From the IMG/VR virus record IMGVR_UViG_3300005528_000053: a stretch of DNA of 64,000 bases; one strand, written 5' to 3'. Shown one piece after another: positions 3,000-64,000 of this stretch (the stretch's first letter is position 1; every line of letters starts with the position of its first letter). The notes under the pieces are model-generated. The model saw only the letters and a list, made by a program, of their open reading frames with translations. It made no database searches and had not been told where the DNA came from. Position numbers and translations under genes: made by a program. Origin of the DNA: an uncultured virus (IMG/VR IMGVR_UViG_3300005528_000053). Lineage: Duplodnaviria > Heunggongvirae > Uroviricota > Caudoviricetes.

Positions 3000-3416
3000 T
3001 TATACTGCGGTTAATGTTAACTGTGTCGATGTTGAATCGTCGTCAACAGTCCATGTATAACGATTGTCACTCCAGTCGTATGCATAGTGCGCTGTTAGTC
3101 TTTTAACTCTAACAGATCCTGCGCCAACTACGGCACCAATAATATTCATTTGTCCAGCAGTTAATGAACCAGTTGCTACGTCAACATTAGTACAGACAAA
3201 TGCTGTACCAGCAGTTATTTCTGCTTCAATTGTAGTAACGGCTGAGTTAGAACCTGTGGTATTGTTTTTACAAGCAAATTTATTACGACTTGTCTGCTTT
3301 AGAATATTTCTATCCTGTCTAATAGCAGTTCCATCGTGGAAGTTACATTTGATTGATTGATCTGGATTTTCGTTGCTTAAAGACCCGAAGTGTCTTTTGT
3401 TAAGAGGGCGTCCCAT
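3000..3416 (-). CDS. Hypothetical virion-associated protein
   Basis: 138-aa ORF with a strong AAGGAG RBS, downstream of a late-promoter motif and a structured leader. Confidence 0.65.
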   Translation of the reverse strand: MGRPLNKRHFGSLSNENPDQSIKCNFHDGTAIRQDRNILKQTSRNKFACKNNTTGSNSAVTTIEAEITAGTAFVCTNVDVATGSLTAGQMNIIGAVVGAGSVRVKRLTAHYAYDWSDNRYTWTVDDDSTSTQLTLTAV

Positions 3417-3430
3417 TTGTTTTCTCCTTT

Positions 3431-3500
3431 ATGTTGACGTTCTAAGTCTACGCGGCGGGCTACCGCATAAGTCTCATTGCTGAGTTCTATAATAGACATA
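3431..3500 (-). ncRNA. Candidate structured 5' leader RNA (multi-stem)
   Basis: Minus strand: GUCUA/UAGAC closing helix, CUCA-GCAA-UGAG GNRA hairpin and AUGCGG-loop-CCGCGU hairpin, lying between the ATAAATA motif and the RBS. Confidence 0.4.
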
Positions 3501-3501
3501 G

Positions 3502-3508
3502 TATTTAT
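3502..3508 (-). promoter_or_regulatory. T4-like late promoter motif (ATAAATA)
   Basis: Intergenic match to the core of the T4 TATAAATA late promoter; the motif recurs upstream of many structural genes in this window. Confidence 0.6.
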
Positions 3509-3522
3509 CCGTGCGGAGATTT

Positions 3523-13795: not shown

Positions 13796-14016
13796 TCACT
13801 AAATCAAACTCTGACATTGAAAAACTGATCAGCCGCTTTGAAAATCAAATCAAGCAGATAAAACACGAAATTTTTAGAATAAGTTGGTATATGCGGGGAG
13901 GTGTCAGCAGCACTGACCTGTTCTATCTCTACAGTTATGAAGATAGAGAAATACTGGCCAACATCATTGATGAAAATCTCAAAGCCAGCCAAGAAGCTGG
14001 TCTTCCTTTAATTTAA
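13792..14016 (+). CDS. gp51-like baseplate assembly protein, possibly made as a -1 frameshift extension of the upstream ORF
   Basis: WYMRGGVS...LYSYEDREIL resembles gp51-type small proteins; TTG start with no clear RBS; lies in the -1 frame behind T TTT TTC. Confidence 0.55.
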   Translation: MITKSNSDIEKLISRFENQIKQIKHEIFRISWYMRGGVSSTDLFYLYSYEDREILANIIDENLKASQEAGLPLI

Positions 14017-15005
14017 AGACCAGCAGCCTGTAGAGCTTTTTTCAGTTCTGGATCTGTTGCAAACTGACTGTAGGAACCTGGTTCTCCGGGTTTAGCAGGA
14101 TCTGGTTTAGGACCATTAGGTTTCCATTTACCATCAGCTGGCTGTGTTCCCTGTCCTTGATCTGGTTTTGCAGGATCTCCAGGCTTGTTAGGCTTTGCAT
14201 CACTCTTAGTCCATGTACTGAATAGTGATTTGACTTTGTCAATTGGTGCAGTTGCTAGGAAGCCAATTGCATCGCTGGCTTTAATATCTCCAATGATTGG
14301 ATAGGTGATAATCTCTGCTATAGTTTTCTTGCCTTCATCACTGGTGGCCCAAGTCATAAAATAAGTCATAGCAATTTCAGAAGCAATTAATAATCCAATT
14401 CCGAGACCGCCAGTGGCAGCAGTTTCTACTAGACCAAACGCACGAACTAGCCATCTTAAACCCATGGCTGTGCGTAGAGCATACTTGATAAAGGAACTGG
14501 CAGCAATGATAGTTACGATTGTGGCTAATAGCTGTTTACGAGTTTCGTTGTAGTCTTCATTGGCCTGCTCTTTGGTAATTTCACCAGCAGCAACTTGTCG
14601 AGCTAGTTCCTTTTCTACAATAGCAATGTCTGTCCAATAACCAGTAGCAAGATCTGCGTAGCCTATCAGTCTTAGAATACGTGTCGTAGCACCGCCAAGT
14701 TTTAGAAAACTAGCTCTGCCCAGCTTATTGTATGCAGGCTCGTTCCTACGTTCTTGAATTAGATCAATTAGATAATTTTTACCTGACTGTATTTTTCTCT
14801 GTATTTTTCTACCTCGCTCTACCTTACTACGACGTTCTGCTCTTTTATCAGGATCAGGACCTGAAGGTGTTGGTGCAGGCGCACTAGGACTTGGTGTAGG
14901 TGTAGCTGGTGGTGTTAGTGGAGTAGGCACCACAATAGGGCTTCCAGGACTAGCGGGTACATAACTAGTAGGACCAGCTTCAGCGATAAGATCAGAAATT
15001 CTCAT
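14013..15005 (-). CDS. Hypothetical protein with Pro-rich termini and central hydrophobic helices
   Basis: 330-aa ORF; TAAATA motifs at 15013-15022 immediately upstream. Confidence 0.7.
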   Translation of the reverse strand: MRISDLIAEAGPTSYVPASPGSPIVVPTPLTPPATPTPSPSAPAPTPSGPDPDKRAERRSKVERGRKIQRKIQSGKNYLIDLIQERRNEPAYNKLGRASFLKLGGATTRILRLIGYADLATGYWTDIAIVEKELARQVAAGEITKEQANEDYNETRKQLLATIVTIIAASSFIKYALRTAMGLRWLVRAFGLVETAATGGLGIGLLIASEIAMTYFMTWATSDEGKKTIAEIITYPIIGDIKASDAIGFLATAPIDKVKSLFSTWTKSDAKPNKPGDPAKPDQGQGTQPADGKWKPNGPKPDPAKPGEPGSYSQFATDPELKKALQAAGL

Positions 15006-15029
15006 GATATTTTATTTATTTAGAATGAT

Positions 15030-15497
15030 TTAAGATGAACTGCGTTCATCTGCTCTTCGCTAACGCTCGAGCTTTTCTTTATTTAATGATATAATTAGAA
15101 GTTATCACGTATGTGATAACTGTTTAAAATTCATGTAGATTGTTTAGGTCAAACGGAACCTCCTACAGGTTCCAATTTTCATGTGAGTTGCCCCAGCCAT
15201 ACGTGGAAGTAGGTGTTTTTACCGTGTACTAATGGGCTCTGACCTTTCCCAACCTACGTCGATACGCTTAAAAAGCGCCTTAGACCTCGTTCCTAGTGTC
15301 TAAGTTTTTATAGCACGGTTTTTCGTATGCTAACATTCATACTATATCAATGCGTTGGGCATATGGTTCGAACCCTCTGACTCGCTTCCAATTTTTCAGG
15401 ATAGTGGATTAACTCCACGGGAGTGCATCAATATGTTACGTGTCCGATTTCTTACGTCGGTTTTTCCACAGCGGTATTACAAACTGGCCCGCTAACC
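15030..15497 (-). ncRNA. Candidate large structured non-coding RNA or structured cis element
   Basis: Longest ORF-free stretch in the window, with more than 10 complementary segments, including crossing (pseudoknot) pairings and G-U pairs that form only on the minus strand. Confidence 0.55.
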
Positions 15498-15962
15498 TTA
15501 AGTGTTAGATGATTTTAAATTGTGTTCTAGAAGAGCCTGTCTAAGCGATGGTGAACTGCCTACACGTACATTGATTATGCCATTATAGTAGTCGTCAGTT
15601 TCGAGAACTCTACGATCAAATTGTTCTCTTGCTTCAATATAACTACATTCTGACTTGCTTTTACAGTAAAAGAGAATTTCTCTGAGAAAGCGATCAGGAC
15701 CTAATGTTGTAACATCTTGATTGAGCCTGTCGTTTGAGCCATAGTATTTTTGCCAATCGGAGTCTATTTTTGACTTAATGCGTTTCTTTTTTTTAGTACC
15801 GTTTTTAAGTGTTACTGTTTTATAGCTAGTTTTACTGAATTTTGCCAGTTTTTTGCCTATATATTTTCTGCCTGTAGCTGTATTAGTGATAAGATACACG
15901 AATCCCACACAGTCTTCAGGCAATTCTGTAACAAGTTGATTTTGATAATACCATGACATCAA
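15498..15962 (-). CDS. GIY-YIG family endonuclease (Seg-like, catalytic domain only)
   Basis: GFVYLITN...RKYIGKK, YYGS, REIL, a conserved E (IEAREQ) and YYN. Confidence 0.8.
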   Translation of the reverse strand: MMSWYYQNQLVTELPEDCVGFVYLITNTATGRKYIGKKLAKFSKTSYKTVTLKNGTKKKKRIKSKIDSDWQKYYGSNDRLNQDVTTLGPDRFLREILFYCKSKSECSYIEAREQFDRRVLETDDYYNGIINVRVGSSPSLRQALLEHNLKSSNT

Positions 15963-15967
15963 CTTGT

Positions 15968-16213
15968 TTATGCCTCGTCGTCTTGTTTGTCCTGTAAAAG
16001 TGATTGTTTGTATTTTGGTGATTTAATTTTTGGTTTGTTTTTTCTTACTTCGCCTATTTCTACTCGTCTAATTGTAGCTAATCTTCTAATTTCAGATAGC
16101 AGTGCCCTAGCTTCAATGCCTGAAGTATGCGTCTGTTTAGTTTCCCAACGCTGATTCGCCTCAAAATATTTTATAAAGGTTCTAATTATTTGTTCGTGAA
16201 TATCACTAGTCAT
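15968..16213 (-). CDS. Small basic helical protein (possibly histone H1-like Hc1 family)
   Basis: 81 aa; the pattern GIEARALLSEIRRLATIRR and a K-rich tail loosely resemble Hc1-like proteins. Confidence 0.4.
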   Translation of the reverse strand: MTSDIHEQIIRTFIKYFEANQRWETKQTHTSGIEARALLSEIRRLATIRRVEIGEVRKNKPKIKSPKYKQSLLQDKQDDEA

Positions 16214-17987
16214 TTAAAATCTCTAAATCTGAAGAATAAGATGTGAACCCGTTTTCTTTAATAACTTTTAAAACATTGTTTACACGCCCTACTAACTCAT
16301 CCTTATGACTGATTAGATAGATGTTTTTATTACGTTCCCTAGCCATCTTCTTTAAGACGCCAAGAGCATTTTCAACACCTATTGCATCTAGACCGTTGTC
16401 AATAAGTTCATCAACAAATAACAGATTAATATTCTGATATAAGCTTTCCCATACATCTCGGAAGCTCCAACTTAGGCCTAGTATAAGTCTATTTCGTTCG
16501 CCTCTACTTAAATTATCAAAATCTAAATCTTGACCTAGTTGTGTAATTTCTACATTTAAGTCATTTAAGAATGTTACTTGATGCGGTAAGCCCATTTTGT
16601 CTAAGTAGAACGACAACCTGTTGTTTAGATAAGCTAAATTCTGATCTATAATTTTTTTACGAATAAAAGAATCTTTGTTAGTCAGTAATTTTAACAGAAA
16701 CTCTTGGTGCTCTTTAAGATTATTCAAGACGTTTATTTGATCCCAAGTAATTTCTTGTAAGGCAGTATTTTTTAAATCTTCAATTTGTTCAGTATAGGGA
16801 TCAGTCTCCTGTTGTCTTTTACCTAAAGATTCTATTAAACTTTCAAGATTGTTTTGATGTTTAAGTGCTTCTTCAATAGTATCGTAAAAAGTTGAAGGTC
16901 TGCCGTTAATATCACCTATCTCTTCAAGTTCTTTTACAGTCTGTGCATAATTGTTAGATACACTTTCTAAGTAAGTACACGCATCTTCTAGATTTTTTTC
17001 TGCTAAAATTTTCATTTCGTCATGCTTGTGATCTTGCAGCATTTGTTCGCATGATGGACATTTATGATCTTTAAGTTTTTCTACTTCTTTTTCATATTTT
17101 TTAACAGTCTTATCTGCCTGTATAATTGCAGTTTCTAGCGTAGCCTTTTCTTTGTTTAAACTTTTTATTTTTGCTGCCAGTTCGTCATAACTTTTTAATT
17201 TTGCATGTTGCTCTAGTTCTTTTTCTATATCAACTGACTGTAGTTCAACAATTTTTTCAGCTAGTTTAAGACAATCAATCTCTCTTTGATTATGCCAAGC
17301 TGACTTTCTAGTCTCTAACCCAGCAATGCTTTGTTCAATTTTTTCGTTTGACTTTTTTGCAGCTTCAATGTTTGCGTTTTCTTGCTGCACTTGTTCTTTA
17401 GTTTCTCGTATCTGTTCTTTTAGCGACTCTGCTTTTTCACTTAGAAGAGTTATACCTAATAGTTGCTCAATAATTGATCTCTGATCATTAGCTCGCATAC
17501 TTAAAAACGGCTCAGTGTAGGTATTAAGAGCTACAATATGTTTAAACATATCGTGACTCATACCTAAAAGATCGTCTAAATCTTTTTGCGTTTCGCGCAT
17601 ATCTCCTTGAGCGTCGTCGGTTTCATCGCCTTCTTGTTCTACATCGTTGATATAAAACTTTAAGATATTAGGTTTACGTCCTCGTTCAATCCTATAATCT
17701 ATTCCATCTTTTTCAAAAGACAGGGTAACTAACATATTCTTATTGTTAATTTTATTAATTAGATTGTCTTTTTTAATATTTGTCAATGCTTGACCAAATA
17801 ATGCATAGCTTAAGGCGTTGACAATAGTAGTTTTACCAGTTCCGTTGCGACTGCCACCATCGTCGCCGCCCATGTCTAGATTTTCGCCTAGTACAAGTGT
17901 TAATTGCTCTCGTTCAAAATCTACAGCTTGGGTTTGATTACCCACACTCATAAAATTTTTAACAGTTAGATTTTTTATTTTAATCAT
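16206..17987 (-). CDS. gp46: Recombination endonuclease ATPase subunit (gp46, SbcC/Rad50-like)
   Basis: Walker A NGTGKTT, zinc hook CPSC, signature LSRGE, Walker B LLFVDE and H-loop ISH. Confidence 0.93.
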   Translation of the reverse strand: MIKIKNLTVKNFMSVGNQTQAVDFEREQLTLVLGENLDMGGDDGGSRNGTGKTTIVNALSYALFGQALTNIKKDNLINKINNKNMLVTLSFEKDGIDYRIERGRKPNILKFYINDVEQEGDETDDAQGDMRETQKDLDDLLGMSHDMFKHIVALNTYTEPFLSMRANDQRSIIEQLLGITLLSEKAESLKEQIRETKEQVQQENANIEAAKKSNEKIEQSIAGLETRKSAWHNQREIDCLKLAEKIVELQSVDIEKELEQHAKLKSYDELAAKIKSLNKEKATLETAIIQADKTVKKYEKEVEKLKDHKCPSCEQMLQDHKHDEMKILAEKNLEDACTYLESVSNNYAQTVKELEEIGDINGRPSTFYDTIEEALKHQNNLESLIESLGKRQQETDPYTEQIEDLKNTALQEITWDQINVLNNLKEHQEFLLKLLTNKDSFIRKKIIDQNLAYLNNRLSFYLDKMGLPHQVTFLNDLNVEITQLGQDLDFDNLSRGERNRLILGLSWSFRDVWESLYQNINLLFVDELIDNGLDAIGVENALGVLKKMARERNKNIYLISHKDELVGRVNNVLKVIKENGFTSYSSDLEILND

Positions 17988-63327: not shown

Positions 63328-64000
63328 ATAATTTTTGTCTCCAAGGAAAGTTGAATTCTGTATCAGGATCTAAACTAACATCTTTAACATGCATTAACGC
63401 ATATCCTCTTGTCGATGCTTCGCTAGTAGGTAACATTCCTAAAAAATAACTATCATTTTTTGCTAGTCTTTCTGCACTAGCTAATGTTTTTAACATTAAA
63501 TTAAAATGAATTTGACTGTACAAGTATGCTGTTTTCCTATAAGACAGAATATTGCTAAACGCATACAATGTATTACCATTCATCCTATTAATTAAATCTT
63601 CTATTTCAAAGAAGCTTTCTTTGAAATAGTTACAATTCAGTTCTAGTAATCTAAACTGCATTTCGGAATAAGGTTCTACAAGCCCGTTTAAAAATTCTTG
63701 TTCTGATTTTCTAATAGACTCTTGATTGCTAACTTGAAGATTGTACCCGCTAGAAAAACATAGTTGGTCATAATCTTTTCCGATATAATTGTCTAAAACA
63801 TTTTTTGTAAAATTGATTGCAGATTGACTAATATCTCTAAAATCTACAGTAGTAGCATTAGGGCACTTGTCAATAATCTGTAAGGCTTGTAGTCCGTTTG
63901 CGGGAGTTACAATTCTTTTAATTTGCGGGAGTTCAAATTTTACAATTGGTTCATTTGTACAATTAAAGATAGTGTCGTCAAACGTACATTCTATACGTAG
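63263..64000 (-). CDS. Hypothetical protein (partial; starts beyond the right edge)
   Basis: The frame of track ORF 63263..63661 stays open to base 64000 (LRIECTFDDTIFNCTNEP...IVTPANGLQAL...VDFRDISQSAI), with weak Rossmann-like motifs. Confidence 0.6.
   Translation of the reverse strand, partial: LRIECTFDDTIFNCTNEPIVKFELPQIKRIVTPANGLQALQIIDKCPNATTVDFRDISQSAINFTKNVLDNYIGKDYDQLCFSSGYNLQVSNQESIRKSEQEFLNGLVEPYSEMQFRLLELNCNYFKESFFEIEDLINRMNGNTLYAFSNILSYRKTAYLYSQIHFNLMLKTLASAERLAKNDSYFLGMLPTSEASTRGYALMHVKDVSLDPDTEFNFPWRQKLYEYYTEYLGILREKERRKSLS

Follow-up and report, generated by a model that had tools for sequence, protein, structure and literature searches.

A stretch of 492 nucleotides (nt) without open reading frames (ORFs) in an uncultured T4-like phage from lake water was found to be the gene of a large, pseudoknotted RNA, which a large clade of such phages has conserved at one locus. 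The stretch lies at 15006-15497 of a 64,000-nt segment of the IMG/VR record IMGVR_UViG_3300005528_000053 (Caudoviricetes), the whole of which is referred to here as the window, and it directly follows a gene for a SegE-type GIY-YIG nuclease. The best explanation as a whole, held with a probability of roughly 55%, is that the pseudoknotted RNA acts itself and that the nuclease is its neighbour.

The window is part of a T4-like genome with genes for a gp46/Rad50-like ATPase, Mre11-like and gp55-like proteins and baseplate components. ORF-free gaps were counted on both strands with ORFs of at least 60 amino acids (aa), and the gaps at 1-1000 and 63662-64000 were set aside as artefacts of ORFs running off the window. 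The interval 15006-15497 was the longest internal one, with runners-up of 106, 88, 75 and 73 nt, as the original prediction of a structured non-coding RNA at this place, made from the sequence alone, had noted. That prediction also described the interval as richer in G+C than other spacers; this is true of the comparison with spacers of 0.20-0.26 (interval, 0.40; window, 0.353) but not with the 106-nt spacer, which reaches 0.42 and contains another RNA motif. Folding was compared with dinucleotide shuffles, a control named with the prediction, and beat them on the minus strand (z = -3.61; equalled by 0 of 100 shuffles) as well as on the plus strand (z = -2.88).

Two sequence types of the RNA were compared, the window type and a second one called here the other type. 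RNA positions were numbered on the minus strand from q1 = 15497 (window position = 15498 - q). Per-helix counts drew on 100 distinct sequences of the window type, whose median identity to the window was 48% and of which 46 were full length; alignment A1 held 24 sequences over q154-300 and alignment A2 the 3′ end of 46 sequences. The 29 pairs of A1 were 91.5% paired, compared with 28-41% when the partners were slid, and 19 of them showed changes on both sides, a number reached by 0 of 500 shuffles. Similar results were obtained with A2, in which 15 pairs were 92.1% paired and 14 showed both-side changes. Among the 100 relatives, nearly every helix that the prediction had listed shows compensatory changes; the helices of the RNA are given in Table 1.

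The strand could be read from the wobble pairs. In P4 and P4b together, 162 alignment cells hold G-U and three hold A-C (127 and two in P4 alone), and because G-U cells far outnumber A-C cells the folded molecule is the minus-strand RNA. The original prediction had chosen the same strand from the 10-base-pair helix 15344-15353/15425-15434, which is this one. The local helices that it had proposed at 15155-15161/15167-15173, at 15279-15285/15298-15304 and at 15209-15214/15252-15257 enclosing 15233-15236/15248-15251 were also recovered as P11, P7, P9 and P10, of which P11 is always paired, yet invariant within the window type. Hairpins had further been placed near 15264-15278, 15404-15418 and 15441-15495; all of them exist, and the one at 15404-15418 (P5b) is compensatory in four of its five pairs, but that at 15264-15278 aligns poorly. 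In P13, the inner pairs are 98% paired, and the outer stem is 77% paired by column, with alignment offsets, and compensatory in four of five pairs.

Two crossing interactions are supported. The helix LR, which crosses P9 and includes the proposed pairing of ACCGTG at 15221-15226 with CACGGT at 15314-15319, was examined by pairing strands across loci: cognate duplexes had a mean of -11.4 kcal/mol versus -6.3 kcal/mol with non-cognate partners, and the cognate duplex was better than the median non-cognate one in 80 of 80 cases, with strand sequences that vary by sub-group. PK1, which crosses P10, takes five complementary forms; it is 100% paired with two of three pairs compensatory in 23 rows, and 99% paired with three of three compensatory in 100 rows (21 G-U versus no A-C). 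Two other proposed pairings were not confirmed. That of AGGTCA at 15146-15151 with TGACCT at 15240-15245 has no compensatory pair among six and clashes with PK1, and that of TGGAAG at 15204-15209 with CTTCCA at 15385-15390 likewise has none among six, and a double change in one relative (L153) maintains the hairpin 15387-15401 in its place. The broader claim holds: the RNA is large, pseudoknotted and non-coding, and it is encoded on the same strand as the upstream operon.

Table 1. Features of the RNA, of its flanks and of the gene that can replace segE. Positions are those of the window unless a locus is named.
Feature	Positions	Strand	Remarks
Whole structured RNA element	15030-15520	-	full-length homology to post-nuclease regions; covariation; ORF-tail conservation
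5′ domain: P1, P2/P3, P4/P4b, inner hairpins	15344-15497	-	in the place of Polynucleobacter-1 in relatives
P1 hairpin	15470-15493	-	100% paired, 3/5 pairs compensatory; 25 G-U vs 0 A-C
P2/P3	15440-15469	-	supported by per-helix counts
P4/P4b closing helix	15425-15434 with 15344-15353	-	97% paired, 5/9 pairs compensatory
Inner hairpins of 5′ domain	15404-15418, 15387-15401, 15357-15375	-	only in the window's sub-group
P6 hairpin, conserved loop	15325-15342	-	99% paired, 4/5 both-side changes; 47 G-U vs 0 A-C
LR 5′ strand	15311-15319	-	pairs with 15221-15231; cognate duplex test 80/80
P7 hairpin, conserved purine-rich loop	15279-15304	-	96% paired, 7/7 both-side (compensatory) changes
P8 variable hairpin	15264-15278	-	up to ~100 nt larger in relatives; poorly aligned, 51% paired by column
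Double-pseudoknot core: PK1, P9, P10, LR 3′ strand	15209-15260	-	
P9	15252-15257 with 15209-15214	-	99% paired, 1/6 compensatory; contains LR 3′ strand 15221-15231
P10	15248-15251 with 15233-15236	-	96-97% paired, 2/4 compensatory
PK1, 3 base pairs	15258-15260 with 15241-15243	-	GAC/GUC in the window
Repeat R1: ACUC + 7-mer	15178-15188	-	
P11 hairpin between repeats	15155-15173	-	100% paired, invariant within window type; 24 G-U vs 0 A-C
Repeat R2: AUCU + same 7-mer	15130-15140	-	
P12 variable hairpin	15101-15120	-	81% paired, 7/8 pairs compensatory
P13 stem, conserved internal loop, 2-base-pair stem under GNNA tetraloop	15052-15072	-	
P14 terminal hairpin, likely RNA 3′ end	15033-15051	-	99.4% paired, 8/8 both-side changes
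AT-rich spacer ahead of next gene, late-promoter-like	15006-15032	-	(T)ATAAATA
SegE-type single-domain GIY-YIG nuclease gene, 154 aa	15498-15962	-	PF19835, E 1.7e-32; phrog_447
81-aa basic protein and gp46/Rad50-like ATPase, upstream genes on the strand of the RNA	15968-17987	-	
PD-(D/E)XK nuclease (PF24608/phrog_244) in the place of SegE	L130:1517-2071; L163:708-1223; L265:754-1290	-; +; +	

The RNA is longer than predicted. The limits first given, 15122-15497 or about 380 nt, fall within a large RNA, as proposed, but are too narrow, since three covarying elements lie beyond them at 15033-15120 and the molecule measures about 470 nt. Its conserved core extends from 15497 to about 15033 and is preceded by a conserved lead-in to about 15520 that overlaps the final codons of the nuclease gene. 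Conservation begins 0 nt past the upstream stop codon in 26 of 42 loci of the window type. Relatives conserve the nucleotide sequence of the final ~20-25 nt of the nuclease ORF (15498 to ~15520), and so does locus L130, where the ORF encodes an unrelated nuclease. Because these nucleotides are kept where another nuclease is encoded, the start of the RNA probably falls within the ORF tail, near 15520 in the window. The motif of this tail, seen on comparison of 15498-15527 with the matching 30 nt of 45 loci, reads ...AAUCYAACACNUAA. A hairpin between the ORF tail and RNA bases 2-6 was considered and rejected, its support being mixed: about 10 of 40 sequences have a C-A mismatch. The spacing between gene and RNA is sometimes larger: one locus has an insertion of about 216 nt, including a small ORF, after SegE and before the RNA (L011:1882-2097), and 251-296 nt separate the two in four further window-type loci.

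At the 3′ side, (T)ATAAATA occurs near the end of the element, past the terminal hairpin, in 31 of 46 relatives; we take this motif to resemble the T4 late-promoter consensus. A scan of the minus strand of the element for sigma-70 promoters and intrinsic terminators found nothing, and because no such signal was seen the RNA would be co-transcribed with the nuclease operon.

Homologues of the RNA occupy the corresponding position in more than 230 loci of related phages. A protein search anchored on SegE matched at least 600 viral-contig stretches, of which 80 loci were kept, and the element was detected by iterated nhmmer in 69 of the 80. The 11 SegE loci without it comprise six with less than 230 nt of downstream sequence and five with a different gene context and no gp46 nearby. 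The common gene order in relatives is gp46, a small basic protein, SegE, about 430 nt without ORFs, variable genes and baseplate genes. Two relatives (L002 and L003) match the non-coding stretch of the window over its full length at 77-80% identity (BLASTN). Pattern searches for the RNA itself gave at least 120 loci for the window type, with 120 of the 120 matches listed confirmed by nhmmer, and at least 119 loci for the other type, with 114 of the 119 matches listed confirmed. When loci were instead sampled through gp46, both SegE and the RNA were present in 58 of the 60 that had at least 1300 nt of downstream sequence. Five loci are 100% copies of the phage of the window in other samples, and the nearest related record (180,861 nt) contains a single SegE and a single copy of the RNA. 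DNA searches of 50,697 phage records returned no match to the window locus or to either type of element, and within these records the RNA is without a known cultured phage carrier. A scan of genome_contigs matched at least 121 loci, and among the matches listed two (L510 and L522) contain the true RNA; their contigs, of 1.5-1.7 kb, were binned in metagenome-assembled genomes of Flavobacteriales/Bacteroidetes. These two copies are probably phage DNA in the bins, and no host is assigned from them.

The suggested comparison with Rfam was run, and none of the families named (GOLLD, ROOL, introns, RNase P, tmRNA) or any other described one matches the version of the RNA in the window. No Rfam 15 match was obtained for the element at gathering threshold or at E <= 10 (801 nt; 211 nt), none to GOLLD, ROOL, OLE, group I/II introns, RNase P, tmRNA or small ribozymes, and permissive scans gave chance-level matches only (E > 0.28). 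A resemblance to a group I intron and to RNase P was considered and dropped since no model matched and the strand order differs; the group I P3/P7 order is not that of the pseudoknot strands here. GOLLD, ROOL and OLE are likewise large, intricately folded, often phage-borne and found by comparative genomics (PMC12286853). The present RNA is smaller than they are and shows no similarity to their Rfam models.

The RNA had been called unannotated, and this stands for the version in the window, whereas in most relatives the 5′ third is catalogued as Polynucleobacter-1 (RF01718). This family scored 81-121 bits, against a gathering score of 37, in seven of eight relatives scanned. In other-type loci it forms the first ~140 nt after SegE, and nhmmer detected it in 49 of the 75 SegE loci whose downstream sequence was long enough and in 110 of the 119 RNA-pattern loci listed. 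The window stayed below the gathering threshold of 37 bits and gave no match even at E <= 10, and 0 of 20 window-type loci matched at E <= 0.1. The part listed as RF01718 was presented in a table of Weinberg et al. 2010 (PMC2864571) as a candidate RNA from Burkholderiales and from fresh water or estuaries, with 16 representatives, and was flagged there 'cis-reg: y'. Its Rfam model covers 141 nt, compared with about 470 nt for the RNA described here.

The remaining ~300 nt of other-type loci match no Rfam family and covary strongly (84 distinct full-length sequences), their helices matching those of the window type, a double pseudoknot among them. They include a hairpin-loop pseudoknot, a three-helix crossing core and analogues of P11 and P14; P11 is replaced by a different covarying hairpin. 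With nhmmer, the two types match each other across the 3′ domain (P11 to P14). Because the flanking ~300 nt covary and the types share this domain, Polynucleobacter-1 makes up only the 5′ third of a longer RNA, which measures about 440-490 nt. A second, uncatalogued type is present in the window; its 5′ domain is perhaps of similar plan, without a model match, and the two types share their architecture as well as the 3′ domain. The 5′ domain of the window and Polynucleobacter-1 have the same genomic position and orientation, the former at the stop codon and the latter starting ~0-60 nt from the SegE stop. Polynucleobacter-1 has three 5′ hairpins followed by a closed junction with two hairpins. 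In the window, the domain begins with a hairpin and also has a nested hairpin and a closed junction of several hairpins; its elements come in another order than those of Polynucleobacter-1, and by eye the two resemble each other in the opening hairpin and in a 'CACUAUCC ... GGA' module.

The element also contains two direct repeats, R1 and R2, which flank P11 and are 47-67 nt apart (48-67 nt in relatives of the window type). Both were found in 150 of 153 sequences, in either type. Their 7-mers are identical to each other in 149 of these 150 and take 11 forms over the whole family, although the extraction took the best candidate pair and is somewhat biased to identity. Because the motifs are identical and not complementary, they suggest that one sequence-specific partner may read both sites. 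A weak A/U/G-U match to the 7-mers occurs ~160 nt upstream in 12 other-type loci. Pairing between the repeats through CAUG/CAUG was rejected, as it fails in the ACAGGAA and GAUA variants.

The nuclease gene upstream was judged in 137 loci. Among the 69 of window type, 67 have SegE and two a PD-(D/E)XK nuclease; among the 68 of the other type, the numbers are 67 (one overlapping the start of the RNA) and one. A further ORF stands between SegE and the RNA in eight of the 80 SegE-anchored loci, and SegE proteins 70-77% identical to that of the window occur in other contexts without the RNA in five. The closest cultured SegE, that of phage Melnitz (54.6% identity), is also in another context and without the RNA. 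The prediction had linked the RNA with the GIY-YIG protein in a ribonucleoprotein; because the nuclease can be swapped (L130, L163 and L265), separated from the RNA and found without it, an obligate SegE-RNA particle is unlikely. The lysine- and arginine-rich insertion that had been attributed to the nuclease is a segment of an ordinary SegE_GIY-YIG domain: residues 4-130 align with positions 1-123 of the 123 in PF19835, at 112.6 bits (cut-off 25). The extra ORFs (L008, L009, L022, L029, L034, L060, L068 and L073, at about 800-1200 nt past the SegE stop) encode ~260-350 aa; that of L073 has a weak methyltransferase match, and the other seven belong to no Pfam family.

Two known arrangements are similar. 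According to PMC2330249, SegB is located in the T4 tRNA cluster, recognises a conserved motif of tRNA genes and secures the inheritance of the neighbouring RNA genes, and according to PMC13096335 it drives the amplification of adjacent RNA or anti-defence genes. Like segE here, segB of T4/T6 is a free-standing GIY-YIG Seg gene beside genes for stable RNAs; the slot can hold different nuclease families (PD-(D/E)XK in three loci). Unlike SegB, which is sporadic among T-even phages, SegE is near-constant beside its RNA in the gp46-anchored sample, and the neighbour here is one large molecule other than a tRNA. IscB and TnpB with their omega-RNAs also combine a compact nuclease gene with a structured RNA at its 3′ end. 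Their folds are RuvC/HNH rather than GIY-YIG or PD-(D/E)XK, the obligate pairing with one nuclease family that marks omega-RNAs was not found here, where the nuclease is swappable and separable, and neither a guide segment nor transposon ends were seen. The only short variable unpaired elements of the RNA are the twin 7-mers, with no complement in cis and no enrichment of their complement in the window.

That the RNA binds the small upstream nuclease, as guide or scaffold, and gives it target recognition through the 7-mers or another segment is regarded as very improbable. A same-strand nuclease gene precedes the RNA in every judged locus, the RNA begins at its stop codon, SegE has a catalytic domain only, and the 7-mers differ between phages while being identical within each RNA. 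Against this, two unrelated folds precede RNA of the same type, and the alignment of L130, with its PD-(D/E)XK nuclease, shows the 7-mer of its SegE-bearing relatives; extra ORFs split gene and RNA, SegE proteins of near-identical length stand without the RNA in five loci, as does the Melnitz homologue, and the variable parts of the RNA are hairpins, no long hypervariable unpaired segment being seen. A related idea makes the RNA the constant subunit of a modular nuclease system, on which GIY-YIG or PD-(D/E)XK enzymes would dock and in which the twin 7-mers would set recognition. It is very doubtful; if true, it would be an RNA-directed nuclease unrelated to CRISPR/OMEGA, with the 7-mers as, for example, two half-sites of a nucleic-acid target. 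A self-processing ribozyme, cutting itself out of the mRNA close to or at the stop codon, would agree with the conserved 5′ boundary there and with invariant unpaired nucleotides in the pseudoknotted core, but no ribozyme or intron model of Rfam 15 matches, the pseudoknot strands are not in the group I order and the conservation extends upstream of the stop codon; this account is held to be very improbable.

Among readings in which the transcript serves its own locus, a replication-origin preprimer, forming an R-loop or primer like ColE1 RNA II or T4 oriF/oriG, is unlikely. The RNA adjoins the recombination and replication genes gp46/gp47, and AT-rich stretches follow P12 and P14, yet the cumulative GC-skew minimum lies at ~19.5-21 kb and not at 15 kb (a weak argument, as skew tracks gene orientation), no iteron array beyond the two repeats was seen, and the strong conservation of the loops, together with the GNNA-capped stem and the twin single-stranded motifs, suggests that the folded RNA is recognised and does more than form a hybrid. 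A further candidate is a cis-acting element in the 3′ untranslated region (3′-UTR) that stabilises or regulates the mRNA of the nuclease/gp46 operon. The RNA directly continues this mRNA, no promoter was found on the minus strand, and Polynucleobacter-1 is marked as possibly cis-regulatory in the table of PMC2864571; however, ~470 nt with two pseudoknots far exceed known 3′ stabilisers, the RNA stays while the upstream gene (SegE, PD-(D/E)XK, inserted ORFs) and the downstream gene vary, and a late-promoter-like spacer divides it from the next gene, which leaves this reading improbable too. 3′-UTR-derived bacterial small RNAs are comparable in that the present RNA has its start at or within a coding-sequence end, with which it is probably co-transcribed; it differs from them in being about ten times larger, pseudoknotted and without a known target. 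An element acting as DNA, such as a recombination hotspot, a nuclease target array or a protein-binding region, is extremely unlikely. The twin direct repeats around an inverted repeat do resemble iterons beside a hairpin, and SegB recognises repeated motifs of RNA genes as DNA (PMC2330249), but the excess of G-U over A-C, the GNNA and UUCG-like loops and the long-range and pseudoknot covariation are signatures of RNA, and the 7-mer of L130 does not change with the nuclease.

In the preferred reading, the ORF-free stretch would be the gene for a multiply pseudoknotted minus-strand RNA of ~470-490 nt, from ~15520/15497 to ~15033. It would be made as the 3′ continuation of the gp46/81-aa protein/nuclease transcript, either remaining part of the nuclease transcript or being processed from it, beginning at or just inside the nuclease stop and ending at the covarying hairpin 15033-15051, before the late-promoter-like spacer. 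The RNA would act as a stable folded scaffold in its own right and present two identical single-stranded 7-nt motifs beside P11 to a sequence-specific partner. The nuclease would be a neighbour, a gene of the homing-endonuclease type that borders a conserved RNA gene on its 5′ side, like T4 segB. Several points weigh against this. A nuclease gene lies upstream of the RNA in 137 of 137 judged loci, with no nuclease-free allele among them, and the sporadic presence expected of a free-standing homing endonuclease was not observed. Because SegE and the RNA are nearly fixed as a pair in the clade (58 of 60), more tightly than a sporadic selfish gene, some functional coupling may exist. No complement of the twin 7-mers was found in cis that is consistent across sequences, and their complement TTCATGT is not enriched in the window (7 observed versus 14.8 expected). 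The scaffold function is one that we infer. Freshwater metatranscriptome contigs from runs X1-X4 match SegE, the 81-aa protein and the downstream gene at 100% identity; they are of low depth, none spans 15055-15543, and they give no verdict on the RNA.

Other observations concern the surroundings of the element. The SegE ORF as listed starts with TTG at 15960-15962, and the ATG directly after it is the likelier start. The gene of the 81-aa basic protein (15968-16213, minus strand) is syntenic in most relatives and belongs to no Pfam or PHROG family. The same is true, with regard to families, of the 330-aa protein on the other side (14013-15005, minus strand), which has Pro/Thr-rich ends and was found in one of the 80 loci. 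A Freshwater-2 RNA motif (RF02980) was detected at 3414-3485 on the minus strand, scoring 52.5 bits where the gathering score is 49.9; the spacer in which it sits, 3417-3522, ranks second in length among the internal ORF-free ones. A search of the whole window with ARAGORN gave neither a tRNA nor a tmRNA, and the tRNA reading of the T-loop-like GGTTCGAACC (15365-15374) was dropped on this negative result.

A catalogued orphan motif of 141 nt thus turns out to be part of a much larger, double-pseudoknotted RNA. Its linkage to nucleases of two folds, its start in an ORF tail and its identical, co-varying 7-nt motifs are handles on what it does. The collection scans each gave at least about 120 or 600 matches, and the clade of uncultured aquatic T4-like phages in which nearly every member has the RNA at this one locus is very abundant. 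Among large phage RNAs without a known job, it is thus one of the more widespread.

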